From contig CAVGND010000008.1 in the NCBI GenBank assembly GCA_963630555.1, forward strand, positions 230 to 64,229: a stretch of 64,000 nucleotides of DNA. The letters run 5' to 3'. The notes beneath the pieces were generated by a model. It did no database searches and was not told the DNA's origin. It was given only the letters and a program-made list of their open reading frames with translations. Shown here one piece after another: positions 8,999 through 61,951 of the stretch. Within the stretch, counting starts at the first letter, position 1. Each line of letters begins with the position of its first letter. The translations under genes and the position numbers were made by a program. Origin of the DNA: Roseburia intestinalis (lineage in GTDB: Bacteria > Bacillota > Clostridia > Oscillospirales > Acutalibacteraceae).

Positions 8999-9033
8999 TA
9001 TGTTACCAATCGGTAAAACTTTTAACGGATATA

Positions 9034-9070: not shown

Positions 9071-9082
9071 ATGGTGTCTTGA

Positions 9083-10084
9083 TTATTTGCTGAGTGCTTC
9101 GTAAACCGCAACGGCTACCGCAACAGTGGCGCCGACCATTGGATTGTTACCCATACCGATAAGTCCCATCATCTCAACATGGGCAGGAACAGACGAAGAA
9201 CCTGCAAATTGTGCGTCTGAATGCATACGACCCATAGTATCCGTCATACCGTAGGACGCAGGGCCTGCCGCCATATTGTCGGGGTGCAACGTACGTCCTG
9301 TGCCGCCGCCCGAAGCAACCGAGAAGTATTTTTTACCTTGTTCAATGCACTCTTTTTTGTAGGTGCCTGCAACGGGGTGCTGGAATCTTGTCGGGTTGGT
9401 TGAGTTACCGGTAATTGAAACATCAACGCCTTCATGGTGCATAATTGCAACGCCTTCGCGAACATCGTCCGCACCGTAGCAGCGAACCTTAGCACGCTCG
9501 CCGTTTGAATATGCGGTTTCATCAACTATTTTAAGTTCGCCCGTGTAGTAGTCAAACTTAGTCTGAACATAGGTGAAACCGTTGATTCTTGAAATGATTT
9601 TAGCAGCGTCTTTTCCAAGACCGTTAAGAATAACGCGGAGGTCTTCTTTACGGGCTTTGTTGGCGCTTCTTGCAAGACCGATTGCGCCTTCTGCCGCTGC
9701 AAATGATTCGTGACCTGCCAGGAATGCAAAACATTTTGTTTCATCCCTGAGCAGCATTGCACCGAGGTTACCGTGACCGAGACCGACCTTGCGGTCATCG
9801 GCTACCGAGCCGGGAATACAGAATGACTGAAGTCCGAGACCGATTTTTTCAGCTGCTTCTGCTGCCGATTTAACACCGTCTTTAAGTGCTATAGCAGCGC
9901 CGACTTCATAAGCCCAAGCGGCGTTTTCAAAACAAATAGGCTGAATGTTTTTGGTTATACCGTAAGCGTCAACGCCGTATTTATCGCAAATTTCTTTTGC
10001 TTCTTCAATTGAAGAAATGCCGTGCTTTTTAAGTTCAGCGTTTATCCGGTCAATTCTTCTTTCGTAACTTTCAAATAAAGCCAT
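9083..10084 (-). CDS. GGGtGRT-family protein (function unknown)
   Basis: Contains the family-defining VASGGGTGRTLHPDN motif. 333 aa. Confidence 0.8.
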   Translation of the reverse strand: MALFESYERRIDRINAELKKHGISSIEEAKEICDKYGVDAYGITKNIQPICFENAAWAYEVGAAIALKDGVKSAAEAAEKIGLGLQSFCIPGSVADDRKVGLGHGNLGAMLLRDETKCFAFLAGHESFAAAEGAIGLARSANKARKEDLRVILNGLGKDAAKIISRINGFTYVQTKFDYYTGELKIVDETAYSNGERAKVRCYGADDVREGVAIMHHEGVDVSITGNSTNPTRFQHPVAGTYKKECIEQGKKYFSVASGGGTGRTLHPDNMAAGPASYGMTDTMGRMHSDAQFAGSSSVPAHVEMMGLIGMGNNPMVGATVAVAVAVYEALSK

Positions 10085-25418: not shown

Positions 25419-25447
25419 TTGACAAATGGCACAATATGTAGTATTAT
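25419..25447 (+). promoter_or_regulatory. Sigma-A-like promoter of pflBA
   Basis: TTGACA 25419-25424, a 17-nt spacer, TATTAT 25442-25447. It lies inside the ORF-track N-terminal extension, which supports the GTG 25483 start. Confidence 0.5.
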
Positions 25448-25482
25448 TGTGTGGAATTATAAAGTTATTTGGTGGTGATACC

Positions 25483-27714: not shown

Positions 27715-28427
27715 TGAAAAACAATATAATCGGCAGGATAAATTCGTTCCAGAGTTTTGCCGCGCTTGACGGGCCGGGTGTGCGTTTTGCTGTTTTTATG
27801 CAGGGCTGTCCTTTAAGGTGCGCCTGCTGCCACAATCCCGAAACTTGGGAAACGGACGGCGGCACCGAATATTCCGCAGATGAAATTTTCGATAAAGTTC
27901 TGCGTTACCGCGAGTATTTCGGGGAAAGCGGAGGTGTTACCGTTTCGGGCGGCGAACCGCTTATGCAGCCGCAATTTGTTACCGCACTTTTTAAAAAATG
28001 CAGGGAAAGCGGAATAAACACCTGCCTTGATACTTCCGGATGTATTATAAACGGCGGGATTTCGGAACTGCTTCGGTTTACAGATTACTGCCTGCTTGAT
28101 ATAAAATATACAGATGATGAGCGATACCGTAAATATGTCGGATGCGGCATCGGCACTCCTTTGAAATTTTTGGAACTGCTTCAGGAAAACGGCATAAAGA
28201 CGACGGTGCGGCAGGTTATTATCAAGGGAGTCAACAACGATGCAACCAACATTGAAAAACTCCAAAAAATCGTTTGTAAATTCAGCTGCATAGAAAAAAC
28301 GGAATTGTTACCGTTTAGAAAACTTTGTGTGGAAAAATACCGTGCCGCGGGTATTGAATTCAAGTTTGAAAACATTGCGGAAACAACGGAAAGCGAAATA
28401 AAATATCTTTACAGTTTGTTCGCGTAG
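27711..28427 (+). CDS. pflA: Pyruvate formate-lyase activating enzyme (radical SAM)
   Basis: [26 protein letters not shown]. Overlaps the pflB stop. Confidence 0.95.
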
Positions 28428-47936: not shown

Positions 47937-48752
47937 ATGCAAAAATCACCATACGAAATCAAGAAAGAAATCTGCGAAGTCGGTCATAAGGTGTATGCAA
48001 AGGGATTTGTTGCCGCTAATGACGGTAATATCTCGGTAAAAGTAAACGATAATGAGTTTTACTGCACACCTACCGGTGTGTCAAAAGGTTCGCTCACACC
48101 GGATATGATTATAAAAATTGACGGAACAGGCAAAAAACTTGACGGTAAACTCAACCCATCATCAGAAATTAAAATGCATCTTCGCGTTTACAGGGAACGC
48201 CCCGATGTTATGGCTGTTGTTCACGCTCATCCTCCTATCGCTACCGCATTTACGGTTGCGGGAGTTCCGATGAATGAATACATATTGCCCGAAGCGGTTC
48301 TTACTATAGGCGATGTTCCTACCTGTGAATACGGTACGCCTTCAACCGAAGAAATTCCCGATTCACTTGAACCGTACATCCAGCAGCACGATGCGTTCCT
48401 GCTTAAAAACCACGGTGCGCTTACCGTCGGCAACACTCTTACAAAGGCTCTGTTTATGATGGAAGAGGTTGAGTTTAACGCAAGAATCGCAATGTACGCG
48501 CGTCAACTCGGAGGAGTCGAGGAAATACCTTGCGAACAACTTGAAAAACTTATGGAACTCCGTAAAAAGATGAATATTCCGGGTCGTCACCCCGGATGCA
48601 AAAAATGTAAAAACCTCGGAACCGAGAATTGCCGCTGCAAGGACAACCTTAATAAGGCGGCCTGCAATTGCAATACGCACGCTGCCGCTGCACCGTCCGG
48701 TGATATGATATCCGAAATTACCAAACGTGTTTTGGCTCAACTCGGTAAATAA
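47937..48752 (+). CDS. Class II aldolase (L-fuculose/rhamnulose-phosphate aldolase-like) with a 54-aa C-terminal extension
   Basis: Zn ligands in the HLRVY...VVHAHP context. The core is about 215 aa. It is followed by a Cys-rich linker and an amphipathic tail DMISEITKRVLAQLGK. Confidence 0.88.
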   Translation: MQKSPYEIKKEICEVGHKVYAKGFVAANDGNISVKVNDNEFYCTPTGVSKGSLTPDMIIKIDGTGKKLDGKLNPSSEIKMHLRVYRERPDVMAVVHAHPPIATAFTVAGVPMNEYILPEAVLTIGDVPTCEYGTPSTEEIPDSLEPYIQQHDAFLLKNHGALTVGNTLTKALFMMEEVEFNARIAMYARQLGGVEEIPCEQLEKLMELRKKMNIPGRHPGCKKCKNLGTENCRCKDNLNKAACNCNTHAAAAPSGDMISEITKRVLAQLGK

Positions 48753-48775
48753 GGCTTCGGAAGGGAGTTTTCACT

Positions 48776-50224
48776 TTGGCTCTTAATTGGACTGAAGCAC
48801 AGATAGAACAAATAGTAAAAGCGGTTGTTGCGCAAATGGGCGGCGATGCCGAAAAGGATTGGGATGCTACCCATTACGGCAGCAGAACATTTACAGGCGT
48901 TTTCGAGGATGTTAACGATGCAATAAACGCGGCTCAGAATGGGTATAAAGCCGTCAGCGCTATGAGTGTTGAACAGCGCGAAAAAATAATATCCGAAATA
49001 CGGAAATTTACCCGTGATGAAGCACATATTATGGGTGCGCTCGGCGTAGCCGAAACCCATATGGGCAGGGTTGACCATAAAACCGCCAAGCATATTTTGG
49101 TAGCCGATAAGACCCCGGGCACGGAGGATATAAAGGCGGAAGCCCAAACCGGTGATCACGGTCTTACCTTGACCGAGCAGGCACCGTTCGGCGTCGTGGG
49201 TGCAATAACACCCAGCACCAACCCGAGCGAAACCGTTATATGCAACAGTATAGGCATGGTGGCCGCAGGTAACGGCGTGGTGTTCAATCCCCATCCGGGC
49301 GCAATTGCCACTTCAAACTATGCGGTTGACCTTGTAAACCGTGCAAGTGCCGCAGCAGGCGGCCCAAGGGTACTGGTTGCATCGGTCGTTAAACCGACAA
49401 TGGAAACCGCGGCGGTAATAGAAAAGCATCCGTCTATAAAATTGCTTGTTTGCACAGGCGGCCCGGGCGTTGTAAAAGCAGTGCTTTCTTCGGGTAAGAA
49501 GGCGATAGGCGCAGGCGCGGGAAATCCACCTGTTATTGTTGACGATACCGCCGATATAAAAAAGGCGGCAAAGGATATAATTGACGGTTGCACATTTGAT
49601 AACAACCTGCCATGCATCGCTGAAAAGGAAGTTTTTGCTTTCAGAAATATTGCCGACGAACTTATTGACGGTATGATGAAAAACGGTGCATATATGATTG
49701 AGGCGGATAAAGCGCGCGAACTTGCCGGAATAGTTCTTGTTGATAAAAAGAATCCCAAAACGGGCATTGTTAAAAAAACCGTCAGCCGCGAATGTGTGGG
49801 CAGGGATGCACGCATACTTCTCGCAAAAATAGGCATAGAGGTTGATGACAGTATACGCTGCATAATATGCGAGGCTGAGTTTGACCATCCGTTTGTTCAA
49901 AACGAACTAATGATGCCGATTTTGCCGATTGTACGTGTTGATAATATTGACGAGGCAATTGACCTTGCGGTAAAAGCAGAACACGGCAACCGCCATACGG
50001 CGCATATGCACTCTAAAAATATCGATAACCTGTCGCGTTTCGCACGCGCCGTTGAAACCACGATATTTGTTAAAAATGCACCGTCATATGCAGGCATCGG
50101 TTTCGGCGGAGAGGGCCATACGACTTTTACAATCGCCGGACCTACGGGTGAAGGAATCACATCGGCGCGCAGTTTTACAAGGCGCCGCCGCTGCGTGATG
50201 GCGGACAGTTTCCGCATAATATAA
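48776..50224 (+). CDS. CoA-acylating aldehyde dehydrogenase (PduP/EutE-like) with an N-terminal encapsulation peptide
   Basis: Catalytic NNLPCIAEKE. N-terminus MALNWTEAQIEQIVKAVVAQMGG. TTG start after a GGAAGGGAG Shine-Dalgarno. Confidence 0.9.
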   Translation: MALNWTEAQIEQIVKAVVAQMGGDAEKDWDATHYGSRTFTGVFEDVNDAINAAQNGYKAVSAMSVEQREKIISEIRKFTRDEAHIMGALGVAETHMGRVDHKTAKHILVADKTPGTEDIKAEAQTGDHGLTLTEQAPFGVVGAITPSTNPSETVICNSIGMVAAGNGVVFNPHPGAIATSNYAVDLVNRASAAAGGPRVLVASVVKPTMETAAVIEKHPSIKLLVCTGGPGVVKAVLSSGKKAIGAGAGNPPVIVDDTADIKKAAKDIIDGCTFDNNLPCIAEKEVFAFRNIADELIDGMMKNGAYMIEADKARELAGIVLVDKKNPKTGIVKKTVSRECVGRDARILLAKIGIEVDDSIRCIICEAEFDHPFVQNELMMPILPIVRVDNIDEAIDLAVKAEHGNRHTAHMHSKNIDNLSRFARAVETTIFVKNAPSYAGIGFGGEGHTTFTIAGPTGEGITSARSFTRRRRCVMADSFRII

Positions 50225-50263
50225 TTTGTTAATTTGCATTAAATCTAAAAAGGAGGAATACTT

Positions 50264-51463
50264 ATGGAAATTTCAGCTTCTCAGATTGAAACTATTGTAA
50301 GGTCAATAGTAAGTCAAATGGGCGGCGGAACTTCCGCACCGTGCGATATACCGAAAAAAGCGCACGTTGCAATGCTTACCGATAAAAAGCATTTTGAGGT
50401 TAAAGAATTTCCGGTTCCCGAACTCGGGGATGACGATATACTCGTAAAGGTCGAGGGGTGCGGCGTATGCGGCACCGATGTTCACGAATGGAAAGGCGAC
50501 CCGTTCGGTCTTATTCCTGTTGTTCTCGGACACGAGGGTACAGGCGAAATAATCTACCTCGGAAAGAATATTAAATGCGATACCGCAGGCAACCCCTTAA
50601 AGGTAGGCGATAAATTGGTAACTTCGGTTATCAGTTGCGGTGAATGCGGCATATGCCGTATGCATCCTTCGCACACTAATCTTTGCGATAAGCAGGGTGT
50701 TTTCGGACTTATAGGGCATAATGATGTGCAACCGCTTAACGGCTGGTTCTCGGATTATATGCTTATAAGGGGAAAGGGCGCAACATATTTTGCGGTTAAT
50801 GACCTTGATTTGCAGGAAAGAATGCTGCTTGAACTTGCCACCGTTTGCGTTCATGCGCTTGACCGTGCCCGTTCAACCGGACTTATTAATTTTAACTCAA
50901 AGGTTCTTATTCAGGGTTGCGGCCCTGTAGGACTTGTGCAGATTGCGGTTCTCCGCGCTGCCGGTGTGAACCATATCATAGCGGTTGACGGTACGCCTTC
51001 AAGACTTGAAATGGCAAAACGGCTGGGCGCCAAAACAACCGTAAACTTCCGCGAAGTTCCGGAAATTAAAGACCGTGTTAATATGGTTAAAAAACTTACC
51101 GTAGGCGGTCTGGGCGCTGACTTTGCATTCCAGTGCACGGGCGCACCCGCAGCGGCTAAGGATATATTTGAATACATAAGGCGCGGCGGCGGCGTTTGCG
51201 AAATGGGATTTTTCGTCAATAACGGCAGTTATGAAATAAATCCGCACTTCGCAATGTGCAATAAGGAAATCAATCTTGTAGGCTCGTGGGATTACAGTGC
51301 AGAGGATTATCCCACTGCAATGGCTTTTTTGAAACAGGCAAGGGAAATGAATATTCCGATTAAGGAACTTATAACACATAATTTCCCGCTTGATAAAATG
51401 AACGAGGCAATGGAGGTCAATGTTTCCCAAAAGGGTATAAAGATCTGTTATGTTGCAGATTAA
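50264..51463 (+). CDS. Zinc-dependent (MDR) alcohol dehydrogenase with an N-terminal encapsulation peptide
   Basis: GHEGTGEI, structural-Zn CGECGICR, NAD-binding GCGPVGL. N-terminus MEISASQIETIVRSIVSQMGGG. Confidence 0.88.
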   Translation: MEISASQIETIVRSIVSQMGGGTSAPCDIPKKAHVAMLTDKKHFEVKEFPVPELGDDDILVKVEGCGVCGTDVHEWKGDPFGLIPVVLGHEGTGEIIYLGKNIKCDTAGNPLKVGDKLVTSVISCGECGICRMHPSHTNLCDKQGVFGLIGHNDVQPLNGWFSDYMLIRGKGATYFAVNDLDLQERMLLELATVCVHALDRARSTGLINFNSKVLIQGCGPVGLVQIAVLRAAGVNHIIAVDGTPSRLEMAKRLGAKTTVNFREVPEIKDRVNMVKKLTVGGLGADFAFQCTGAPAAAKDIFEYIRRGGGVCEMGFFVNNGSYEINPHFAMCNKEINLVGSWDYSAEDYPTAMAFLKQAREMNIPIKELITHNFPLDKMNEAMEVNVSQKGIKICYVAD

Positions 51464-51481
51464 GGGGAGGAATGACCCGAA

Positions 51482-51799
51482 ATGGCTCTTGGAATGATTG
51501 AAGTCTACGGCTTTACAACCGCAATAGTCGTTGCCGATAAAATGGCAAAAGCAGCCGCTGTAAAGGTAGTTGCGATTGATAAAAACAAGCCTTTGAATGC
51601 CGAATCGGCAGATGTTCCGCTTGTTATGGCAATTAAGGTGGAGGGTGACGCTGCATCGGTTGAGGCGGCAGTGGACACCGGAATAGCCGAGGCGAAAAAG
51701 CGAAACCTTTATCTCACCCACAAGGTGATTTCAAGGCAGTCCGAGAATATTGAGTGGTTTGCTCAATTAAATGCGCTCGGACGCGATAAACTAAGATAA
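51482..51799 (+). CDS. Divergent BMC-H shell protein with an enlarged pore loop and a C-terminal tail
   Basis: ALGMIEVYGFTTAIVVADKMAKAAAV is a Pfam00936-type N-terminus. The canonical KIGSG pore motif is replaced by DKNKPLNAESADVP. Confidence 0.75.
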   Translation: MALGMIEVYGFTTAIVVADKMAKAAAVKVVAIDKNKPLNAESADVPLVMAIKVEGDAASVEAAVDTGIAEAKKRNLYLTHKVISRQSENIEWFAQLNALGRDKLR

Positions 51800-51829
51800 A
51801 CAAAATGATTTTAAAGGAGATTTTTAATT

Positions 51830-52105
51830 ATGTTAGAAGCATTAGGTATGGTTGAAACCAGAGGTCTTGTAGCGGCAATTGAGGCTGCAGATGCAATGGT
51901 AAAGGCAGCAAATGTAGTTCTTATCGGCTCTGAAAAGATCGGCAGCGGTCTTGTAAGCGTTATGGTAAGAGGCGACGTAGGTGCAGTAAAAGCGGCTGTT
52001 GAAGCCGGCGGAGCTGCTGCCGGTTCACTCGGCGAAGTAGTTGCTACCCACGTTATTCCGAGACCTCACGCAGATGTTGAAAAACTTCTCCCCGCTATCG
52101 ACTGA
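51830..52105 (+). CDS. BMC-H shell protein (PduA/PduJ-like), copy 1
   Basis: [57 protein letters not shown]. Confidence 0.93.
51836..52093 (+). repeat. 258-bp direct repeat, copy A (inside BMC-H copy 1)
   Basis: Base-for-base identical, by eye, to 52475-52732. Confidence 0.95.
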
Positions 52106-52123
52106 TTTAAGGTTTGATTCTTT

Positions 52124-52399
52124 ATGGAAAACGCAATCGCGCTTCTTGAAGTGCAGGCATTGGTTGCCGCAATAGCAGGGCTTGACGCAATGGTAAAGGC
52201 AGCCGATGTAAAACTTATTCATGTTGAAAAACGTCTTGGCGGAAGGCTTGTAACCGTTGTGGTTGAAGGTACCGTTTCTGCCGTCACCGCAGCGCTTGAA
52301 GCAGGCGCGGCAGCGGCGGCTGAGGTCGGCAAAGTTAAATGCCGCGAGGTTATAGCGCGTCCGCACAAGGATATTATGGACTTACTTTATACCGGGTAA
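52124..52399 (+). CDS. BMC-H shell protein, variant pore (KRLGGR)
   Basis: IALLEVQALVAAIAGLDAMVKAADVKLIHVEKRLGGRLVTVVVEGTVSAV. Confidence 0.85.
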   Translation: MENAIALLEVQALVAAIAGLDAMVKAADVKLIHVEKRLGGRLVTVVVEGTVSAVTAALEAGAAAAAEVGKVKCREVIARPHKDIMDLLYTG

Positions 52400-52471
52400 G
52401 TCAGTTTGAAATCTGTATAAAAGGCTTTGAAAGGCTTTTATAAACATAATTCCAATAAGGAGGATATTATA

Positions 52472-52744
52472 ATGGAAGCATTAGGTATGGTTGAAACCAG
52501 AGGTCTTGTAGCGGCAATTGAGGCTGCAGATGCAATGGTAAAGGCAGCAAATGTAGTTCTTATCGGCTCTGAAAAGATCGGCAGCGGTCTTGTAAGCGTT
52601 ATGGTAAGAGGCGACGTAGGTGCAGTAAAAGCGGCTGTTGAAGCCGGCGGAGCTGCTGCCGGTTCACTCGGCGAAGTAGTTGCTACCCACGTTATTCCGA
52701 GACCTCACGCAGATGTTGAAAAACTTCTCCCCACCATTAAATAA
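52472..52744 (+). CDS. BMC-H shell protein (PduA/PduJ-like), copy 2
   Basis: Identical to copy 1 except that the second codon (Leu) is missing and the last 3 residues differ. AAGGAGGA Shine-Dalgarno before ATG 52472. Confidence 0.93.
52475..52732 (+). repeat. 258-bp direct repeat, copy B (inside BMC-H copy 2)
   Basis: Base-for-base identical, by eye, to 51836-52093. Confidence 0.95.
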
Positions 52745-52763
52745 TTTGCCCTTATTTATCGTT

Positions 52764-52788
52764 TGCAGGGCGCATTATGCGCCCTGCA
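52764..52788 (+). other. Intra-operon GC-rich hairpin between the shell-gene block and pduL
   Basis: TGCAGGGCGCA-tta-TGCGCCCTGCA, a perfect 11-bp stem with no U-tract. Confidence 0.5.
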
Positions 52789-52900
52789 GGGGGAAATATC
52801 ACTTCCCTGATTTTAACTTTAATTAATTGATTTTGCGTGCAATGTTCTTAAAGCCGCAGTGCCGGCTAAAGAATTTTATTATATAAAAGAGGAAAAACAA

Positions 52901-53542
52901 ATGCAGTTTGATGAAAAGCAGATAACGGCGGCGGTTATAAAGGTGCTGTCGGCAATGGATAACGAGGCACAGGGCAATATCCCCGTAGGCGTTTCCAATC
53001 GACATATACATCTTTCAAGAACAGACCTTGAAACTCTGTTCGGGAAAGGTTATGAACTTCAGCCACTTAAAGATTTGTCGCAGCCCGGACAATACGCCTG
53101 CAAAGAAACATTAACCGTAATCGGCCCATCATTAAGACCGATTGAAAAGGTAAGAGTCTTGGGCCCTGTAAGGAGTTCAACACAGGTCGAAATATCAAGA
53201 ACCGACTCTTTTACGCTTAAAGTTAACCCTCCTGTAAGACCGTCGGGAGAAACGGCAGGCAGTGCCACAGTTACTATTGCGGGTCCTAAAGGTGTTATAA
53301 CAGTGCCCGAATGCTGCATAATTGCTAACCGCCATATACATATGAGTATGTCGGACGCTGCCCGTTTCGGCGTAAAAGACGGTGATTTTGTTATGGTTGA
53401 TGCATCAGGTGAGCGTAAAACGAGATGGTACGATGTGCAGATAAGGGCTAACGACGCATTCAGGCTTGAAATGCACATTGATACCGATGATGCTAACGCT
53501 GCAGGTATCAAAAACGGCGACAAAGTCACTATAGTAAAATAA
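52901..53542 (+). CDS. pduL: Phosphate propanoyltransferase PduL with an N-terminal encapsulation peptide
   Basis: Duplicated PduL motifs GVSNRHIHLS and IANRHIHMS. N-terminus MQFDEKQITAAVIKVLSAM. AAGAGGA Shine-Dalgarno upstream. Confidence 0.92.
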   Translation: MQFDEKQITAAVIKVLSAMDNEAQGNIPVGVSNRHIHLSRTDLETLFGKGYELQPLKDLSQPGQYACKETLTVIGPSLRPIEKVRVLGPVRSSTQVEISRTDSFTLKVNPPVRPSGETAGSATVTIAGPKGVITVPECCIIANRHIHMSMSDAARFGVKDGDFVMVDASGERKTRWYDVQIRANDAFRLEMHIDTDDANAAGIKNGDKVTIVK

Positions 53543-53562
53543 ACTTATCGGGAGAAAAAGTT

Positions 53563-53811
53563 ATGAAAATAGGGAAAATTGTTGGAACGGTTGTATCAAC
53601 CCGCAAGCAGGATTCGCTTGTAGGCTCAAAATTTATGGAAGTCAATGTGATTGAAAACGGCAAACAGACCGATAACTTTATGATAGCGGTTGACAGCGTA
53701 GGAGCCGGTATCGGCGAAACGGTACTTATAACAACAGGTTCCGGTGCCAGGTTAGCGCTTAAAAACACAGAATCACCGGTTGACGCCGTGATAGTAGGTA
53801 TAGTAGATTAA
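53563..53811 (+). CDS. BMC-P pentameric vertex protein (EutN/PduN/CcmL family)
   Basis: MKIGKIVGTVVSTRKQDSLVGSKFMEV. 82 aa. Confidence 0.9.
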   Translation: MKIGKIVGTVVSTRKQDSLVGSKFMEVNVIENGKQTDNFMIAVDSVGAGIGETVLITTGSGARLALKNTESPVDAVIVGIVD

Positions 53812-53839
53812 AACCGTATTTTTTCGGAGTGGTGTTTAA

Positions 53840-55162
53840 ATGGAAAATATCAAATCGCTTATGCAAAATGCCGGCATTGTAGGTGCAGGCGGCGCAGGTT
53901 TTCCGTCGTATGCAAAAATAGCGGACGGTGCCGAAATGTTGCTTATAAACGGTGCTGAGTGCGAACCTCTTATTTATACCGATATGTATTTGCTCAAAAC
54001 CGAACTGCAAACGGTTATTGACGGTATTAACATAGTGCTTGACGGTGCGGGAATCGGAAAATGTTTTATCGCAATTAAAGAACATACCGCAAAACGTCTG
54101 GGACTTTCGGATTGGCAGCCGCTTACCGAGCGTATAAGGATAAGAACAATGCCTGATGCTTATCCGATGGGTGACGAAATAAATCTTATATATCAGGTAA
54201 CGGGCAGGGTGGTTCCTCCGGGCGCACTCCCGATAAAGGTGGGCGTAATTGTCTATAACGTGGAAACGGTTTATAATGTTTCGCGCGCAAAACAGGGTGC
54301 TCCGCTTACCGAAAAGTGGCTTACGGTCGGCGGAGATATAAAAAACCGCGTTGTCGTAAAAGTGCCTGTCGGTATGACGGTGAGGGATCTCTTTGCAACC
54401 CTCGGCGTAACTGTTGACGATGACCATATTGTTATTGACGGCGGTCCTTCCATGGGAAGAATTATTAACCACGGCAGCGCCGTTATAACCAAAACCACGA
54501 AATCTTTGCTTGTATTGCCGCGTGATATTCCCGCCGTTGCAGGCAAACTCGGTTCTTATGAAATACATATCAAACACGCACAAAGCAACTGCTGCCAGTG
54601 CACAAGATGTACCGATATGTGCCCCCGCGCGCTTCTCGGCTATCCGTTGCAGCCGCACAGATTGGTAAGAACCGTTATGACAGTGGCGGAGCAGGATCCC
54701 GAAATAATTAAAACCGCTTCGCTTTGCTGCGGTTGCGGAATATGTGAAATTGCCGCCTGCTGCCAAAGTATTTCACCGCGTGCGGTAATAAACGAACTTA
54801 AAGGAGTGCTGGGCAAGAACCGCATTAAATATGTTGCGGAGGAATCAACCGTTCCGAGCGAACAGCGTGATTACCGTTTAATGCCGTCAGAGCGTTGGAA
54901 AATGCTGCTCGGCGTGCATAAAATGGATGTTATGCCGGAACTGAATCCCACAAAACTAAAAACACACACCGTAGAATTGCTGCTTAAACAAAGTATCGGC
55001 GCACCCGTAACGCCCATAGTTAAGGCAGGGGACGAGGTAACCGAAGGACAGTTGATAGCCACCAACGAAGACGGGCTTTTCGTTCCGTTACATTCGTCCG
55101 TAAACGGTAAAGTCGTTTCGGTGGATTCAAACAAGATCGTTATAGAAAACAGGGAGGCGTAA
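53840..55162 (+). CDS. PduS-like / RnfC-like Fe-S flavoprotein
   Basis: GIVGAGGAGFPSYAK nucleotide-binding site, an SLBB region and two 4Fe-4S motifs (CCQCTRCTDMCP, CCGCGICEIAAC). Confidence 0.85.
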   Translation: MENIKSLMQNAGIVGAGGAGFPSYAKIADGAEMLLINGAECEPLIYTDMYLLKTELQTVIDGINIVLDGAGIGKCFIAIKEHTAKRLGLSDWQPLTERIRIRTMPDAYPMGDEINLIYQVTGRVVPPGALPIKVGVIVYNVETVYNVSRAKQGAPLTEKWLTVGGDIKNRVVVKVPVGMTVRDLFATLGVTVDDDHIVIDGGPSMGRIINHGSAVITKTTKSLLVLPRDIPAVAGKLGSYEIHIKHAQSNCCQCTRCTDMCPRALLGYPLQPHRLVRTVMTVAEQDPEIIKTASLCCGCGICEIAACCQSISPRAVINELKGVLGKNRIKYVAEESTVPSEQRDYRLMPSERWKMLLGVHKMDVMPELNPTKLKTHTVELLLKQSIGAPVTPIVKAGDEVTEGQLIATNEDGLFVPLHSSVNGKVVSVDSNKIVIENREA

Positions 55163-55165
55163 GAT

Positions 55166-55711
55166 ATGTTTCAAGCTGTAGGAATAATTGAACTCAAAAG
55201 TATAGCTAAGGGTATAGAAGCGTGCGATGCCGCCCTTAAATCGGCAGGCGTAAAACTTGTCTCGGCTCATCCGTCGTGTCCTGGTAAGTATGAAATAATA
55301 ATAACAGGCTCAATCTCAAATGTTACCGCATCTGTTGACCATGTGCGGGACTTTTTCGGAACATATATAATTGATGAATCGGTTATGGGCAGAATTGACC
55401 CGACCGTTATAACCGCCCTTTTCGGCACGCAGGAAATAACCGATAAAGGCTCGCTCGGTATAATTGAAACCTATTCGGCGGCGTCTGCAATTAAAGCGGC
55501 GGATATTGCCGTTAAAACCGCTAAAGTTTCAATATACGATTTGCGTATTTCACGCGGAATGGGTGGTAAAGGCGTTGTTCTTATAACCGGTGATGTAGGC
55601 GATGTCACAGCCGCTGCCGAGGCAGGTGCTGCCCATGCGCGCAGTATAGGTTTGCTTAATACCTGGTCGGTAATCGCCGCTCCGCATACCGAACTTTGGG
55701 AGCAATTGTAA
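55166..55711 (+). CDS. BMC-T tandem-domain shell protein (PduT-like)
   Basis: Two BMC domains (AVGIIELKS..., SLGIIETYS...). A Cys in the PSCPGK loop sits where the PduT cluster-ligating Cys is found. Confidence 0.85.
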   Translation: MFQAVGIIELKSIAKGIEACDAALKSAGVKLVSAHPSCPGKYEIIITGSISNVTASVDHVRDFFGTYIIDESVMGRIDPTVITALFGTQEITDKGSLGIIETYSAASAIKAADIAVKTAKVSIYDLRISRGMGGKGVVLITGDVGDVTAAAEAGAAHARSIGLLNTWSVIAAPHTELWEQL

Positions 55712-55738
55712 TTTTAATACCTAAAGGAGTAAAACCCT

Positions 55739-58267
55739 ATGGGAGAAATTAAATTTCAAATAGAAAAAAGTGCAAGAATCGATAAACTTATAAGTGCACT
55801 TTATGAAAAAATGCCCGAAATCGAAGCTGACCGTGGCGAACTTATAACCGAAAGTTATATGGCAACCGAGAATCTGCCTGTAATTCTCCGCCGCAGTGCC
55901 GCTTTCAAACATATTTTAGAAAATATTCCGATAGTTATTCGTGACGGGGAACTGATAGTCGGCAGCAACTCGGTTGCGCCGCGCGGTTGTCAAGTTTACC
56001 CCGAATACTCATATGAATGGCTGCTGGAGGAGTTCGAAACCGTAGCATCCCGTGAGGCAGACCCGTTTTTCATTTCTGAAGAAACCAAGAAACGGCTCCG
56101 CCGCGTTTATCCGTATTGGAAAGGTAAAACGGTAAGTGACCTTGCTACCCGGATAATGGCTCCCGAGGCATATGCGGCCTTTACAAAGCACGATGTATTT
56201 ACTGTAGGTAATTATTTTTATAACGGCGTCGGACATATTAATGTAAATTATAATAAGGTTCTTACGGTTGGGTATGAGGGTATTATAAGAGAAACCGAAA
56301 CCGCTCTTGCTTCGCTTAAGGTGAGCGACCCTGATTATGCGGAACGCTCGGCGTTTTTAAAGGCGGTTATCGAAAGTTTGCAGGCAGTTATAACCTATGC
56401 AAACAGATATGCCGATTTGGCAGAGCAAAAAGCCGCCGTATGCCGTGACGAAACAAGAAAAAAGGAACTGTTAAGAATAGCCGCAAACTGCCGCCGCGTC
56501 CCCGCCAAACCGGCTGAGGACTTTTGGCAGGCTTGCCAAAGTTTTTGGTTTGTTCAACAGCTTTTGCAGCTTGAATCAAGCGGACATTCCATTTCTCCGG
56601 GACGGTTTGACCGTTATATGTATCCATTTTTTAAAAAGGACCTTGATAACGGCACCGTTACATATGAATCGGCGCAGGAACTTATTGATTGCATCTGGGT
56701 AAAACTCAATGATATAAACAAGGTGCGTGACGCCGCATCCGCAAAGGGTTTTGCGGGTTACGGTATGTTCCAAAATCTTATAGTAGGCGGTCAGGATTCC
56801 TTTGGGTTTGACGCAACAAATGATTTGTCCTATATGTGCCTTGAAGCGGCAATGCATGTCCGCCTGCCGCAGCCCTCACTTTCCATAAGGGTTTGGAACG
56901 GTTCACCGCAGGATCTGCTTATAAAAGCTGCCGCACTTACGCGTGTCGGTTCCGGCTTGCCTGCTTATTATAATGATGAAATTATAATCCCTGCGCTTAT
57001 GCATAGGGGATTAACACTTGAGGATGCAAGGGATTATTGTATAATCGGTTGTGTTGAACCGCAAAAAGGCTCGAAAACCGACGGCTGGCACGATGCTGCA
57101 TTTTTCAATATGTGCCGTCCGCTTGAACTTGTCTTTTCAAACGGTGTGGATAAAGGCGTTCAGATAGGTCTTAAAACGGGCGAAGTGACCGAAATGGCTT
57201 CGTTTAAAGAATTCTATGACGCCTATAAAAAACAAAGCGACTATATGGTATCGCTGCTTGTAAATGCCGATAATGCCGTGGACGCTGCGCACGCTGCGCG
57301 TTGCCCTCTGCCGTTCCAGTCTTCAATGGTCGAGGATTGTATAGGTCGCGGAAAAAGCGTTCAGGAGGGCGGGGCAATATATAATTTTACAGGGCCTCAG
57401 GGATTTGGTATTGCCAATATGACCGACGCACTTATAGCCGTTAAAAAGTATGTGTTTGACGAAAAATCAATAACTATGGCGGAACTTAAAGAGGCGCTCC
57501 GTTACAATTACGGTAAGGGTATGACCGTTTCGCAGAAAGCGGAAATAGCCGCCGAAATTGCAGGTTCTCTTAAAAATAACGGCATGGATTTGGATGAAAC
57601 CGCACTTGCCGCCATTGCCAAAGAGGTTGACGCTGCTACGTCTGTGCCGCAAGACAAAAAGGCGAGATTTGAAGAAATATTCTCTCTGATTGAAAAAGCG
57701 CCAAAATACGGCAATGACGACCCCGAAACCGATATGTTTGCAAGAGATGTTGCATATATCTATACAAAAGAGGTCGAAAAATACCGTAACCACCGCGGAG
57801 GTATGTTCCAGGCAGGGCTTTATCCTGTTTCGGCAAATGTTCCGCTCGGTGCACAAACCGGCGCAACACCCGACGGCAGGTATGCCTGCACCCCGATTGC
57901 GGACGGCGTAGGTCCCGTTTCCGGCAGGGATAAATTAGGCCCTACCGCAACCGCAAACTCGGTTGCCGCACTTGACCACGGTATAGCATCAAATGGCACG
58001 TTGCTTAATCAAAAATTCCATCCGTCTGCGCTTGCGGGGATGGAAGGGCTTGAAAAATTTGTCGCCTTAATACGCGGATTTTTCGATCAAAAGGGTATGC
58101 ATATGCAGTTTAATGTCGTCAGCCGCGAAACATTGCTCGACGCGCAGGCTCACCCCGAAAAATATAAAACCCTCGTTGTTCGTGTTGCAGGGTACAGTGC
58201 ACTGTTTACCACATTGTCACGCTCGTTGCAGGACGATATAATCAACCGTACTACACAGGGTTGGTAA
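55739..58267 (+). CDS. Glycyl radical enzyme, probable B12-independent 1,2-propanediol dehydratase (by context)
   Basis: 842 aa with Cys loop IIGCVEPQ and glycyl motif RVAGYSALF. Substrate inferred from the aldolase-containing GRM5-type gene set, not from active-site residues. Confidence 0.9.
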   Translation: MGEIKFQIEKSARIDKLISALYEKMPEIEADRGELITESYMATENLPVILRRSAAFKHILENIPIVIRDGELIVGSNSVAPRGCQVYPEYSYEWLLEEFETVASREADPFFISEETKKRLRRVYPYWKGKTVSDLATRIMAPEAYAAFTKHDVFTVGNYFYNGVGHINVNYNKVLTVGYEGIIRETETALASLKVSDPDYAERSAFLKAVIESLQAVITYANRYADLAEQKAAVCRDETRKKELLRIAANCRRVPAKPAEDFWQACQSFWFVQQLLQLESSGHSISPGRFDRYMYPFFKKDLDNGTVTYESAQELIDCIWVKLNDINKVRDAASAKGFAGYGMFQNLIVGGQDSFGFDATNDLSYMCLEAAMHVRLPQPSLSIRVWNGSPQDLLIKAAALTRVGSGLPAYYNDEIIIPALMHRGLTLEDARDYCIIGCVEPQKGSKTDGWHDAAFFNMCRPLELVFSNGVDKGVQIGLKTGEVTEMASFKEFYDAYKKQSDYMVSLLVNADNAVDAAHAARCPLPFQSSMVEDCIGRGKSVQEGGAIYNFTGPQGFGIANMTDALIAVKKYVFDEKSITMAELKEALRYNYGKGMTVSQKAEIAAEIAGSLKNNGMDLDETALAAIAKEVDAATSVPQDKKARFEEIFSLIEKAPKYGNDDPETDMFARDVAYIYTKEVEKYRNHRGGMFQAGLYPVSANVPLGAQTGATPDGRYACTPIADGVGPVSGRDKLGPTATANSVAALDHGIASNGTLLNQKFHPSALAGMEGLEKFVALIRGFFDQKGMHMQFNVVSRETLLDAQAHPEKYKTLVVRVAGYSALFTTLSRSLQDDIINRTTQGW

Positions 58268-58303
58268 TATAAATCATTAAAAAAATTTTAGGAGGCAGGA
58301 ACT

Positions 58304-59056
58304 ATGGCTATCAGATTTTGTCCCAATTGCGGCAAGGAAAACACAGAAAATCTTAATTTCTGCGGAAATTGCGGAACAAATTTTGCAAAAGAAAAAATTG
58401 AAGAACCGATTTTAACCGAACAAACCGTTCCTCAAACCGTATCCGAGGAAGAGCAGAGCACAGCGGCTCAGTCTGTCGACTCGGCTGAACAGGTTAAAGA
58501 TACTGAATCCGAACAGTCTGTTCAAACCGCTCAACCTGTTCAAGAAGAACAGCCTGCTCAACCGGTTCAACCTGTTCAGCAGATGCAGATGTTCCAACCG
58601 GTAAAGCCTGTCAGGCGCGGAAAGGGCCTCGGTATTGCTTCAATGGTAATCGGAATATTGGCGATTTTAAATTCTGTTTTGCTCGCCGCTTTACTATGGT
58701 TTTTCCCTTTCGAAATAGTTGTTGTATCGGCGGTGTTTGTGGGTATATTATCCGTGGCATCGCTGGTTTTAGGCATAGTTTCCCTTTGCAAAGGTTATAA
58801 AAAAGGCTGCAGCATTTCGAGTGTTATAATGTCGTCGCTTGCCTTGCTTCTGTGCGTTGCGTCGGTGATTATATCCGCAAACTTTGTTGATACTACGCTT
58901 ATGGACGAAATCATTGATGAATTACCTGATAACGGCATGTATCACAGATCGTTGGATGATTTGGAAGATTATCTTGATGATTATGACGACTATTATGACG
59001 ACTATTATGATGATTATGAAGATAAGTGGGAAGATTATTACAGCAAAAGTTATTGA
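58304..59056 (+). CDS. Zinc-ribbon membrane protein with a Pro/Gln-rich linker and an acidic Tyr-rich tail
   Basis: CPNCG...CGNCG zinc ribbon, a QPVQ-type repeat linker, 3-4 TM helices (GLGIASMVIGILAILNS...), tail DDLEDYLDDYDDYYDDYYDDYEDKWEDYY. GGAGGCAGGA Shine-Dalgarno upstream. Confidence 0.65.
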   Translation: MAIRFCPNCGKENTENLNFCGNCGTNFAKEKIEEPILTEQTVPQTVSEEEQSTAAQSVDSAEQVKDTESEQSVQTAQPVQEEQPAQPVQPVQQMQMFQPVKPVRRGKGLGIASMVIGILAILNSVLLAALLWFFPFEIVVVSAVFVGILSVASLVLGIVSLCKGYKKGCSISSVIMSSLALLLCVASVIISANFVDTTLMDEIIDELPDNGMYHRSLDDLEDYLDDYDDYYDDYYDDYEDKWEDYYSKSY

Positions 59057-59091
59057 TATTTATTGAAAATAATTTGTAAAGGCGGTGCGAA

Positions 59092-59880
59092 ATGGAAAAC
59101 TGTTATAATGTAAAAGGCAGAATTTTTAATGTTCAGCGTTTTTCCATCCATGACGGGCCCGGTATTCGCACCATTGTCTTTTTAAAGGGGTGCAGATTGC
59201 GTTGCAAGTGGTGCTGCAACCCTGAATCACAGCGTTATGATATAGATGTGATGAATGAAAACGGAACACAAAAAAACGTCGGCGAAGACGTTACGGTTGC
59301 CGAGGTGATGAAACAGGTTCGAAGGGACAAGCCGTATTACAGCCGCTCGGGCGGTGGGTTGACCCTTTCGGGTGGTGAGGCATTTTGTCAACCGCAGTTT
59401 GCCGCCGCCCTGCTTACAGCCGCTCGGGCAGAAGGCTTTAATACCGCTGTTGAAACCGCAGGGTTTTATCCGTTTGAAAATATTGAACCTGCTTTGCCGC
59501 TTATTGATACCGTCCTTATGGATATTAAAAATATGAACAGTGCAAAACATGAACAGTTTACGGGGCAACCCAATAAACTTATACTTGGGAACGCCGAGCA
59601 GATAGCGCAAAACGCAAAACGCCTTATAATCCGCGTGCCCGTAATTCCCGGGTTCAACGATACCGACGCCGAAATATCGGCAATTTCGCGTTTTGCCTCA
59701 ACATTGCAAGGTGTTACCGAACTTCATTTGCTGCCGTACCATAGGTTGGGGCAGGATAAATATACTCAGCTTGGCAGACAGTATGAACTTGACGGAATAG
59801 AACCGCCCGAAAATCCAAAAATGCAGCGGTTGCTTGAAACCGCACGCAAAAGCGGACTTTCCTGCCGCATAGGCGGATAA
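59092..59880 (+). CDS. Glycyl-radical enzyme activating enzyme (radical SAM), short form
   Basis: SIHDGPGIRTIVFLKGCRLRCKWCCNPES. 262 aa. Confidence 0.92.
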   Translation: MENCYNVKGRIFNVQRFSIHDGPGIRTIVFLKGCRLRCKWCCNPESQRYDIDVMNENGTQKNVGEDVTVAEVMKQVRRDKPYYSRSGGGLTLSGGEAFCQPQFAAALLTAARAEGFNTAVETAGFYPFENIEPALPLIDTVLMDIKNMNSAKHEQFTGQPNKLILGNAEQIAQNAKRLIIRVPVIPGFNDTDAEISAISRFASTLQGVTELHLLPYHRLGQDKYTQLGRQYELDGIEPPENPKMQRLLETARKSGLSCRIGG

Positions 59881-59905
59881 CTTTATATCGCGAAAAGGTA
59901 TTATT

Positions 59906-60274
59906 ATGAAAGATTTTACATTGCAGGACAAAATGAGAATAGTACAGGAACTTGTTCCGGGTAAACAGGTTACACTTTCGCACATAATCGCAAACCCCGA
60001 TGTTACGCTCTATAAAAAATTGGGACTTGACCCGTCAAGCGATGCGGCGCACGGCGCAATCGGCGTGTTTACCGTAAGCCCGGCGGAGACCGCAGTTATA
60101 GCGGCTGATATTTCTATGAAAGCTTCGGGTGCGGAACTCGGCTTTGTTGACCGTTTCAGCGGTACGCTTATTATAAACGGTACCGTTTCGCAGGTTGAGG
60201 CTGCTCTCACCGCCGTTAATGAATATTTGCAGAATAAGATGGGCTATTCGGTCTGTGAGATTACAAGAACATAA
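59906..60274 (+). CDS. Circularly permuted BMC shell protein (PduU/EutS family)
   Basis: RIVQELVPGKQVTLSHIIANP ... AIGVFTVSPAETAVIAADI ... GFVDRFSGTL. Confidence 0.88.
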   Translation: MKDFTLQDKMRIVQELVPGKQVTLSHIIANPDVTLYKKLGLDPSSDAAHGAIGVFTVSPAETAVIAADISMKASGAELGFVDRFSGTLIINGTVSQVEAALTAVNEYLQNKMGYSVCEITRT

Positions 60275-60278
60275 TTAA

Positions 60279-60749
60279 ATGAAACGCATTATATTGATAG
60301 GGCGTTCCGAGGCGGGCAAAACCACGCTCATACAAGCGCTTAAAGGCGAGCAAATTCATTACTGTAAAACACAGTCGATAAATTATGAAGATACGGTGAT
60401 AGATACGCCGGGGGAGTATTGTCAGGTGCGCAAACTCGGTGCGGCACTTGCGCTTTACGCATATGAGGCGGATATTTGCGGTCTTGTTGTGTCGGCAGAT
60501 GAACCGTATTCACTTTTCAGCCCGAATATAACAGGGCTTGTGAACCGTGAGGTAATCGGTATAATAACCGGTATTGATAAAAAGAGAGCAAACCCCGAAC
60601 GCGTTGAGAATTGGCTTAAAATCGCAGGGTGCGAAAAAATATTCCGCGTCTGTTCTTATACGGGTGAGGGCGTTGAAAATATAATAGAATATCTTAATAA
60701 GGGGGATAATGATGGCAAAGACCGTAGTAATAGCATTTGCAAACAATAA
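60279..60749 (+). CDS. EutP/PduV-family small GTPase
   Basis: MKRIILIGRSEAGKTTLIQAL P-loop and DTPGEY. 156 aa. Confidence 0.88.
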   Translation: MKRIILIGRSEAGKTTLIQALKGEQIHYCKTQSINYEDTVIDTPGEYCQVRKLGAALALYAYEADICGLVVSADEPYSLFSPNITGLVNREVIGIITGIDKKRANPERVENWLKIAGCEKIFRVCSYTGEGVENIIEYLNKGDNDGKDRSNSICKQ

Positions 60750-61503
60750 AGGCGGCAGCGGTAAATCAACTACCTGCAGCAATGTCGGGTATGAATTGTC
60801 GCGTCTTGGTAAAAAAGTATTGCTTGTTGACGGCGATATGCAATTAAACCTCTCTCTTTCGCTTTTCAGTGAAGATGATGTGCTTGCTATGGCGGCAGGC
60901 GGAAAAAATCTTTACACCGCTGTAAAAGATGAAAAAGATTTGTCGGATTATATTGTGTCCACGGTTTATGAAAATCTTGACCTTATACCGTCTTCCACCC
61001 TTATGAGTTCGGTCGAATATGACCTTTTTACAAAGTGGCAGCGTGAATTTATACTTAAAAAGTGCTTAAAAAATATTAAAGAATCGGGCAAGTACGATTA
61101 TATTTTAATAGATTCACCGCCTACATTGGGTGGCTGGGTTATGAATATAATGTGTGCTTCCGATAAGTTGATAATCCCGGTGGAAGCAAGCCCTTGGGGC
61201 TTGTTCGGTCTTGCAAATATGTTCGAATTTGTTGACCGTATAAAGGAAATCGCGCCGTCGCTTTCCCTGCTCGGGATAGTTATTACAAAGGCGGACGCCA
61301 GAAAAAATTATTTAAAGCAGACGCTTGAAACCCTGTCGGAACTTGAAGGAATAACGGTTTTTGATACTGTTATAAGAATCGACAGTGCGGTAGAATGGTC
61401 ACAGGATAACAGCCGTCCGGTATCGGCTTATAAGGCTTCAAGCCGCGCGGCAAAGGAATACGCTCAACTTGCTAAGGAGGTAATTAAAAATGTCAGTAGG
61501 TAA
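60709..61503 (+). CDS. ParA/MinD-family deviant Walker-A ATPase (McdA-like candidate)
   Basis: NNKGGSGKSTT, LLVDGD, YILIDSPP. The ATG overlaps pduV by 41 nt. AAGGGGGA Shine-Dalgarno upstream. Confidence 0.9.
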   Translation: MMAKTVVIAFANNKGGSGKSTTCSNVGYELSRLGKKVLLVDGDMQLNLSLSLFSEDDVLAMAAGGKNLYTAVKDEKDLSDYIVSTVYENLDLIPSSTLMSSVEYDLFTKWQREFILKKCLKNIKESGKYDYILIDSPPTLGGWVMNIMCASDKLIIPVEASPWGLFGLANMFEFVDRIKEIAPSLSLLGIVITKADARKNYLKQTLETLSELEGITVFDTVIRIDSAVEWSQDNSRPVSAYKASSRAAKEYAQLAKEVIKNVSR

Positions 61504-61741
61504 AAACAGTTTGTCAAGAGCCGCAAAAACAGCGGCAGAAGAACCGGTAAAAGAGAAAACCGAAACCCCGAAATCGGCTGAAAAGACGAAATTAAATGCC
61601 GCCAAATCCGTAGGGAAGCCGTCATCCGGCAAGGCTAAAACCGCTAAAAAGCAAACCGCCCCTAAAAAGCCGAAAAATGCGACAAAGAAAAAGTCGGATA
61701 AAATTGCTGTCGGTGCCGAATTGCCGTACTATTTATTGTAA
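61490..61741 (+). CDS. 83-aa lysine-rich, low-complexity protein (McdB-like adaptor candidate)
   Basis: AAGGAGG Shine-Dalgarno 9 nt upstream. Overlaps the parA end by 14 nt. 20 Lys and 1 Arg against 7 acidic residues. Only the C-terminus (IAVGAELPYYLL) is hydrophobic. Confidence 0.6.
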   Translation: MSVGKNSLSRAAKTAAEEPVKEKTETPKSAEKTKLNAAKSVGKPSSGKAKTAKKQTAPKKPKNATKKKSDKIAVGAELPYYLL

Positions 61742-61772: not shown

Positions 61773-61795
61773 GTCAAAAAGTATACTTTTTGGCA
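61773..61795. promoter_or_regulatory. 23-bp palindromic site, copy 1 (GTCAAAAAGTATACTTTTTGGCA)
   Basis: Near-perfect palindrome centred on GTATAC and preceded by AAGCAGAG. It is the reverse complement of copy 2. Confidence 0.5.
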
Positions 61796-61880: not shown

Positions 61881-61909
61881 TTGACAGTTATTTTATAATA
61901 TGATAGTAT
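61881..61909 (+). promoter_or_regulatory. Strong sigma-A-like promoter for the downstream secreted protein
   Basis: TTGACA 61881-61886, a 17-nt spacer ending TGa, TAGTAT 61904-61909, with an A/T-rich UP-like tract upstream. Confidence 0.55.
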
Positions 61910-61928: not shown

Positions 61929-61951
61929 TGCCAAAAAGTATACTTTTTGAC
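61929..61951. promoter_or_regulatory. 23-bp palindromic site, copy 2 (TGCCAAAAAGTATACTTTTTGAC)
   Basis: Lies about +15 to +35 relative to the predicted transcription start. It is also preceded by AAGCAGAG. Confidence 0.5.

Follow-up and report, generated by a model that had tools for sequence, protein, structure and literature searches.

A ParA-based positioning system has been demonstrated for one type of bacterial microcompartment (BMC) only, the carboxysome, and how catabolic BMCs are spaced in the cell and passed on to daughter cells is an open question. In the carboxysomal McdA/McdB system, the first 20 residues of McdB from Halothiobacillus neapolitanus are necessary and sufficient for the contact with the ATPase, K7 being critical, and the N-terminal peptide of ParB acts on ParA in a similar way. 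At the other end of McdB an invariant C-terminal tryptophan holds the cargo, and its replacement by tyrosine keeps the protein functional in Synechococcus elongatus. McdA/McdB-like genes, with a C-terminal tyrosine or phenylalanine in the small protein, have been described bioinformatically beside propanediol utilization (PDU), glycyl-radical microcompartment (GRM) and other loci (MacCready 2021, Fig. 8f; Basalla 2024, Fig. 4). These descriptions have been echoed in reviews, and Axen et al. (2014) had pointed to the ParA domain PF01656 in BMC loci. In this study, we analysed a 64,000-nucleotide stretch of contig CAVGND010000008.1, labelled Roseburia intestinalis and referred to throughout as the window, in which the last two genes of a BMC operon encode a ParA-type ATPase and a small lysine-rich partner protein. 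By analogy with McdA/McdB, we consider it fairly probable that the two proteins together make up a ParA-driven system that positions the GRM5-type BMC encoded by the same operon, a two-component functional McdA/McdB analogue that would space the BMCs and keep them from aggregating.

The two genes are genuine, show translational coupling with one another and with the preceding pduV gene, are inherited together and are located preferentially at the ends of BMC operons. The pair is made up of the following features:

60709..61503, + strand: ParA/Soj-type deviant Walker A ATPase, 264 aa (PF13614, 5e-53)
60742..60771, + strand: deviant Walker A motif NNKGGSGKST (residues 12-21) with the signature lysines Lys14 and Lys19, read from the sequence
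61474..61480, + strand: Shine-Dalgarno sequence AAGGAGG of the partner gene, located within the terminal part of parA, 9 nt before the ATG, read from the sequence
61490..61741, + strand: lysine-rich, disordered ParA partner of 83 aa, candidate McdB-like adaptor (conserved open reading frame (ORF); disorder in the AlphaFold2 model)
61490..61519, + strand: N-terminal motif MSVGKNSLSR, conserved across the family, with parallels in the N-terminal peptides of H. neapolitanus McdB and ParB
61718..61738, + strand: C-terminal motif ELPYYLL-COOH, conserved across the family and the part of the protein with the highest pLDDT

The partner ORF shares the last 14 nt of parA. The gene coordinates and this overlap, the Walker A, A' (LLVDGD) and Walker B (YILIDSPP) motifs of the ATPase, the Shine-Dalgarno sequence and the composition of the partner (20 Lys and 1 Arg against 7 acidic residues) had been given in an initial annotation made without database searches, and all of them were confirmed when the sequence was read again. 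The acidic residues are 6 Glu and 1 Asp, and Lys, Ala, Thr, Pro and Glu abound in the protein. The same annotation let parA begin 41 nt inside pduV, which is correct for the ATG at 60709; however, gene callers and all close homologues use the next ATG, at 60712, which is the probable true start and gives a protein of 263 aa and an overlap with pduV of 38 nt. On inspection of the window sequence no convincing terminator was found between pduV, parA and the small ORF.

The small protein had been described as disordered and as lacking a helix-turn-helix (HTH) or ribbon-helix-helix (RHH) segment, and this description held. Neither Pfam nor NCBIfam gave a domain match, neither fold was found with these databases or in the AlphaFold2 model, and that model, based on a 68-sequence alignment, has a mean pLDDT of 59, a pTM of 0.15 and no secondary structure, its confidence peaking in the C-terminal 14 residues (pLDDT about 75). 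A charge-hydropathy (Uversky) plot likewise puts the protein in the disordered region. A MinD-like membrane helix or an amphipathic helix of the encapsulation-peptide type at the C terminus was considered and rejected, because the motif contains a proline and only a 3-residue helix is predicted.

Evidence that the small ORF is a gene comes from its relatives. Used alone as a query, the 83-aa protein matched only itself (word index, low complexity); partners were gathered as the ORF following each ParA homologue and then entered into alignment searches. When one genome per GTDB species was searched with ParA, 80 loci with 65-97% ParA identity were obtained. Sequence after parA is available in 79 of these, and in 77 of the 79 the parA stop lies within a partner ORF; the two genes share 14 nt in 60 cases and 10, 20 or 26 nt in the others. 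Of the remaining three of the 80 loci, L030 is cut off by the end of its contig, whereas L034 and L038 have no partner. An SD-like motif lies 5' of the partner start in all loci. The 77 partner ORFs are 76-229 aa long, and their middle part can barely be aligned; both ends are conserved, with the family consensus M-[SPA]-[VI]-G-K-x-[SA]-[IL]-x-R at the N terminus and [DE]-[LM]-P-x-[Y/H/W]-L-L-COOH at the C terminus. The recurrence of this arrangement and of the conserved termini in 77 other species-level loci shows that the small ORF is a genuine gene and not a chance frame; a lack of conservation, which the initial annotation had named as a finding that would overturn its proposal, was thus not encountered. 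Of 11,226 open frames with 50 aa or more in all the DNA retrieved, only one outside the partner ORFs has the C-terminal pattern.

The family extends well beyond these loci. A profile of 70 partners matched at least 949 protein clusters in a collection of 5.8 billion proteins, and the best 120 of them all carry both end motifs, none being named and none having a real Pfam domain. With a narrower profile, an exhaustive HMMER search of 1.84 billion representatives at 50% identity gave 335 matches. Among 329 unique members, which were defined by a filter that required G4, P-5 and L-2, R10 is invariant, K5 is present in 97%, and positions 3 and 8 are aliphatic; position -3 is Y in 79%, H in 16%, W in 4% and F in 1%, and 86% have an acidic residue at -7 or -8. 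G4, P79 and L82 are invariant also in the unfiltered alignments A1 and A2. To judge from these alignments, the termini of the partner are under selection and the linker varies freely. The family is large, unnamed and sharply defined by two short motifs around a free linker. The basic N terminus had been likened to ParA-stimulating peptides, a comparison that the conservation of K5 and R10 favours and for which K7 of H. neapolitanus McdB offers a parallel. The features by which McdB-like proteins have been described in published work, a tyrosine or phenylalanine in the last 4-5 residues, acidic residues nearby and a location near a PDU or GRM operon, are all found in the window protein with its ELPYYLL-COOH terminus.

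Linkage to BMC genes was assessed in the 74 of the 80 loci that have at least 1.5 kb upstream of ParA (informative loci). In 55 of the 74, BMC shell genes and/or PduV lie immediately upstream and the pair forms the 3' end of a BMC operon, usually right after pduV, in agreement with the linkage that had been proposed from the window. Here, as in the window, the ATPase is encoded in or beside the BMC operon with a small partner next to it, as would be expected of an McdA. A block of PduU-like protein and PduV directly precedes ParA and its partner in 49 of the 80 loci, and in most BMC-linked loci pduV runs 4 or 8 nt into parA. Seven BMC-linked loci that were scored as lacking an adjacent PduV keep the ParA pair (in one of them, L075, PduV lies about 320 nt upstream), and the pair is therefore separable from PduV. 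The family is widespread in gut Clostridia that ferment fucose and rhamnose through 1,2-propanediol.

The catalytic site of the ATPase is intact. The catalytic residues K14, K19, D41, D43 and D135 are invariant in 81 clade ParA sequences, as are N-N-K-G-G-S-G-K of Walker A and T21, with residue 20 varying (S in 51 of 81), and 86 positions are invariant or nearly so, with at most one exception. The AlphaFold2 model (pLDDT 85, pTM 0.89) has the alpha/beta fold of Soj and MinD, and a MinD-type C-terminal membrane helix is absent from the window ParA as read from its sequence.

The way in which the module would work can be sketched on the basis of gene order, conservation, the catalytic site and predicted disorder, from which we infer the functional steps. 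ParA dimers with bound ATP would cover a matrix in the cell, which is most likely the nucleoid. The adaptor would attach to the outer face of the BMC by the [DE]-[LM]-P-x-Tyr-L-L-COOH at its very C terminus, and ELPYYLL-COOH is by analogy presumed to be the determinant for docking on the cargo, that is the shell. Its N-terminal M-S-V-G-K-x-S-I-x-R, in which K5 and R10 would be the decisive basic residues, would contact ParA, MSVGKNSLSR being presumed, again by analogy, to be a peptide that both interacts with and stimulates ParA. This contact would stimulate ATP hydrolysis and the release of ParA, the flexible linker would act as a spacer between the ParA-binding and the cargo-binding end, and the resulting zones of local ParA depletion would push BMCs apart by a Brownian ratchet, so that aggregation is avoided and inheritance is secured. 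The end motifs offer targets for mutagenesis (K5, R10 and Y80/Y81) and minimal peptides for binding assays, and they could be portable tags with which to position engineered metabolosomes.

A number of observations weigh against this assignment. The window protein ends in PYYLL and lacks the C-terminal tryptophan that is invariant in carboxysomal McdB, and the ATPase is not closer to McdA than to ParA proteins of DNA partition; it is nearer to chromosomal Soj/ParA both by sequence and by fold. This comparison is a ranking of PDB sequences and folds in which there is one solved McdA, that of Cyanothece. The top Foldseek matches are Soj/ParA structures with template-modelling (TM) scores of 0.82-0.88; Bacillus subtilis Soj is 35% identical to the window ParA (TM 0.87; phmmer about 1e-23), and in a phmmer search against the PDB the Myxococcus xanthus ParA 8RAY reached 1.5e-29. 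The Cyanothece McdA reached 1.4e-17, with only residues 4-191 aligned, and stood at rank 16 in Foldseek with a TM score of 0.76. The characterised McdA types are polyphyletic, and nearness to McdA is therefore a weak criterion. A further difficulty is the Soj loop I-P-[KR]-[NS]-V-[KR]-L-[AS]-E, which holds the DNA-binding arginine (R189 in B. subtilis Soj, R238 in M. xanthus ParA, where R238E loses DNA binding). In the clade it is replaced by I-R-[VI]-D-S-x-[IV]-E-W-[SA]-Q-D-N-S, an almost invariant segment (ParA residues 222-235, about 61372-61413 of the window), and the residue matching the arginine is Ala, Ser or Thr and never basic. Nucleoid binding by the clade ParA can therefore not be assumed. 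Conserved basic residues do remain on the helices that match alpha8 and alpha10 of HpSoj, namely R198, K199, K203 (the counterpart of HpSoj K199), K242, K243 and R246, and because of these flanking residues nucleoid binding is plausible, though unproven. The segment I-R-[VI]-D-S-x-[IV]-E-W could possibly serve as a signature by which the clade is recognized, and it hints that binding to the matrix differs.

Nor is it proven that the pair is dedicated to BMCs, since no BMC gene lies within 8-10 kb in 19 of the 74 informative loci. Seventeen of the 19 are stand-alone pairs and two (L034 and L038) have ParA alone; the housekeeping neighbours at these loci include a MacB-type ABC transporter with a PknB-like kinase (in Blautia), rimP-nusA-infB, a GNAT gene, an Fe-dependent alcohol dehydrogenase with an AraC-type gene, and sugar ABC transport genes. 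The tblastn matches to PduV 3-7 kb downstream in L006 and L029 are IF-2 GTPase domains, and both loci were counted as not BMC-linked. In a neighbour-joining tree of 81 ParA sequences the stand-alone loci mix with PduV-less BMC loci in one part, L066 stands apart, and all other clades uniformly have BMC genes and PduV. In many cyanobacteria the genes for BMC positioning are encoded away from the BMC operon. Loci without a nearby BMC occur in Blautia and Acetatifactor, two genera reported to carry pduC, which makes it plausible that stand-alone pairs act in trans on a BMC encoded elsewhere; a role of the stand-alone copies that is unrelated to BMCs is possible as well. In L034 and L038 (Mediterraneibacter; ParA at 8001-8786) an HD-domain protein precedes the ParA gene and an AraC-type regulator and an FGGY sugar kinase follow it; either these loci have lost the partner, or its gene lies elsewhere. 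Three Blautia-type pairs, L013, L022 and L040, cluster within the Blautia group and yet come from metagenome-assembled genomes (MAGs) binned as Prevotella or Eggerthellaceae; this is probably mis-binning, and taxon labels of these MAG contigs therefore need caution. It also speaks against a metabolosome ParA system that positioning of the Pdu BMC of Salmonella has been reported to be independent of ParA, of MinD and of heterologous McdAB, and that in the literature up to 2025-2026 we found neither an experiment on a native metabolosome ParA system nor interaction or localization data for any metabolosome.

Other explanations of the pair have to be considered. An adaptor of this kind might itself be a nucleoid tether, in which an H1- or AT-hook-like linker binds DNA nonspecifically, the C terminus holds the BMC and ParA, which may bind DNA otherwise than Soj does, modulates or mobilizes the tether and does not itself act as the matrix, although we regard this as rather unlikely. 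The linker is net positive in 96% of the 329 members (median +8), 77% have at least two histone H1-like [APTS]KK[APTS] repeats, and between one and three AT-hook-like KKRGR[KP]P motifs are present in 14 partners (for example the ORFs of L035, L048, L063 and L071, and P0330, P0370 and P0344); on such composition the linker may bind DNA. The loss of the Soj DNA-binding arginine from the clade ATPase would fit with a tether, as would histone-like HC2 (PF07382) matches in the precomputed Pfam labels of some partners, though these are compositional and no evidence of homology. In L066, a locus from an Acutalibacteraceae MAG, a 152-aa partner (8779-9234) has both end motifs and, in place of the linker, a partial ParB_N segment (PF02195, 3.8e-9, GYRRF), which suggests that the adaptor family descends from the DNA-associated ParB; in this locus no BMC gene lies within 8 kb upstream, and the contig ends about 300 nt downstream. 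However, about 4% of the linkers are neutral or acidic, that of L044 having a net charge of -20, so that a basic charge is not strictly required; the McdB of H. neapolitanus is basic and disordered too and does not bind DNA, and ParA keeps the basic residues on its helices listed above. We likewise regard it as unlikely that the pair acts on a cargo, or in a process, unrelated to BMCs, such as a different cytoplasmic assembly or the divisome, and is only often co-transcribed with BMC genes. The 17 stand-alone pairs and two ParA-only loci among housekeeping genes would suit such a role, but about three-quarters of the informative loci lie within BMC operons, with overlapping frames from pduV through the partner, and the stand-alone loci share their mixed part of the tree with PduV-less BMC loci. 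In one version of this explanation the C-terminal motif imitates the conserved FtsZ C-terminal peptide and binds FtsZ partners such as FtsA or SepF. FtsZ has a long disordered linker and a short terminal peptide, a layout like that of the partner. The motif resembles the FtsZ tail DYLDIPAFLRKQAD (PMC4117426), which in Escherichia coli reads D-I-P-A-F-L-R; however, the likeness covers five of seven residue classes in a peptide of seven residues, and no cell-division gene adjoins any locus examined. That the adaptor is a ParB-derived tether mimicking the FtsZ C-terminal peptide (D-I-P-x-F-L-R), which would couple the ParA system and the BMCs to divisome proteins that bind FtsZ, for example FtsA or SepF, instead of or besides docking on the shell, is very improbable; if true, the inheritance of metabolosomes would be tied directly to the division machinery.

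We attach the lowest probability, close to dismissal, to a conventional DNA-partition cassette, in which ParA would act with a small centromere-binding protein of the ParG or omega type on nearby repeats and so segregate a mobile element or a region of the chromosome. The Soj-like ATPase and the ParB_N segment in one relative would agree with this, and the 18-bp palindrome CAAAAAGTATACTTTTTG occurs in two exact copies just 3' of the partner gene (61775-61792 and 61932-61949). Each copy is part of a longer direct repeat (AAGCAGAG..CAAAAAGTATACTTTTTG..CA), and the copies flank an AT-rich region with a promoter-like site. Yet among the clade loci compared, the palindromes are present in near-identical relatives only, and one copy is placed as an operator would be, just downstream of the strong promoter-like site that the gene 3' of the partner has for itself (61881-61909; TTGACA-17-TAGTAT with an upstream TG). 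A centromere was rejected for these reasons, and because of the latter position the palindromes can be read as operators of that next gene; the sequence suggests an operator pair for a repressor. The DNA-binding fold and conserved repeats of a ParB, ParG or omega system are likewise lacking in the family: the partner has no predicted RHH or HTH fold, and L066 alone carries part of ParB_N. The initial annotation had named parS-like repeats and a home on plasmids or integrative and conjugative elements (ICEs) as findings that would overturn its proposal. The closest ParA in 72,556 plasmid records reaches no more than 42% identity, compared with 65-97% among clade members, no member of the clade is found in these records, and among the loci examined the flanks are chromosomal housekeeping or BMC genes, with no plasmid or ICE genes. 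An origin of the pair from a plasmid or ICE was rejected on these grounds.

The positioning module that we favour, an McdAB-like pair, is thus supported by comparative genomics, since the pair is conserved, linked mostly to BMC genes and not to plasmids, and the palindromes are not conserved. Of the McdAB-like pair put forward initially, context, disorder and end motifs stand; the ATPase turned out to be Soj-like in phmmer and Foldseek, and the C-terminal aromatic residue is tyrosine, where carboxysomal McdB has tryptophan. The novelty claimed for ParA positioning of a catabolic BMC holds as far as experiments are concerned, but the idea itself was published on bioinformatic grounds in 2021 and 2024. 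The positioning concept has already been predicted in the literature, and the locus is a well-documented candidate for it.

The operon to which the pair belongs, and the last two genes before parA, are as follows:

47937..60274, + strand: GRM5-type BMC operon (Pfam scans; called genes and Pfam in the near-identical contig L084)
59906..60274, + strand: PduU-like BMC-domain shell protein, 122 aa (PF00936, 2e-11)
60279..60749, + strand: PduV/EutP-family small GTPase (PF10662, 1.3e-49; TIGR02528 above cutoff)

The operon begins with genes for a class II aldolase, an aldehyde dehydrogenase, a Zn-dependent alcohol dehydrogenase, four BMC-H proteins, a PduL-type phosphotransacylase and an EutN/BMC-P protein, continues with a PduS-like flavoprotein, a BMC-T protein, a glycyl-radical enzyme, a zinc-ribbon/transmembrane protein and the activase of the glycyl-radical enzyme, and closes with the PduU-like shell protein, PduV, ParA and the partner, which are the last genes of a complete BMC operon. 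The PduU-like protein is the first gene of the conserved terminal block PduU-like/PduV/ParA/partner. Aldolase-marked GRM5 loci form the fucose/rhamnose class (PMC8156839), and because of its class II aldolase the operon is of the GRM5 type (fucose/rhamnose/1,2-propanediol). The zinc-ribbon protein (58304-59056, 250 aa), whose gene separates that of the glycyl-radical enzyme from that of the activase, combines a zinc ribbon at the N terminus with a Q/E/P-rich spacer, predicted membrane spans and an odd Asp/Tyr-rich tail, DDYDDYYDDYYDDYEDKWEDYY; among the 80 loci a tblastn match was found in the closest relative L001 only, and the gene appears as an odd insertion in the BMC operon. The remaining window is ordinary chromosome, with for example GerA. 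A second glycyl-radical enzyme of 762 aa, which resembles pyruvate formate-lyase, lies with its own activase at 25426-28427, outside any BMC context, and is presumably the housekeeping pyruvate formate-lyase. A large secreted protein is encoded from 61980 to beyond 64000 (about 1020 aa; 10491-13553 in L084); it has a signal peptide, repeated internal modules, Cys-rich CxxC stretches and no Pfam match, and is transcribed apart from the BMC operon.

Among the known systems, the pair resembles in layout McdA/McdB, of the alpha type in H. neapolitanus and the beta type 2 in cyanobacteria. In both, a ParA with the signature lysine is followed by a small, basic, disordered partner that has a basic N-terminal peptide and an aromatic residue with acidic neighbours in its last 4-5 residues, and the genes lie in or beside a BMC operon or, sometimes, elsewhere in the genome. 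Unlike in McdA/McdB, the cargo would here be a catabolic glycyl-radical metabolosome of anaerobic Clostridia, the aromatic position, which in McdB is an invariant Trp, is taken within the fixed L-P-x-Y-L-L-COOH by Tyr, by His or, rarely, by Trp, the partner has no detectable homology to anything named, some linkers are AT-hook-like, and the ATPase is nearer to Soj. The McdAB-like genes published for PDU, GRM and ethanolamine utilization (EUT) loci are described in terms that the window locus fits exactly: a ParA and a small disordered ORF with a C-terminal Tyr at a GRM operon. Those accounts are brief neighbourhood observations, and the window clade may be among their examples. As far as their texts show, several features appear to go beyond the published notes: the end motifs, the size of the family (at least 949 clusters), the terminal block that runs from the PduU-like protein to the partner, the existence of stand-alone pairs, the change in the Soj loop, and the variants with ParB_N or AT-hook segments. 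Chromosomal Soj with Spo0J/ParB provides the best matches in sequence and structure and also has a partner whose N-terminal peptide contains a central Lys/Arg, and L066 keeps a ParB_N segment; however, the partner described here has no HTH, CTPase domain (a part in L066 only), dimerization domain or parS, the DNA-binding loop and arginine of Soj are replaced, and the genes lie in a BMC operon and not near oriC. PduV, a Ras-like GTPase implicated in the dynamics of the Pdu BMC, adjoins ParA with overlapping frames and has, like the pair, been proposed to position the BMC from outside the shell; its fold, however, is unrelated, and the two modules are separable.

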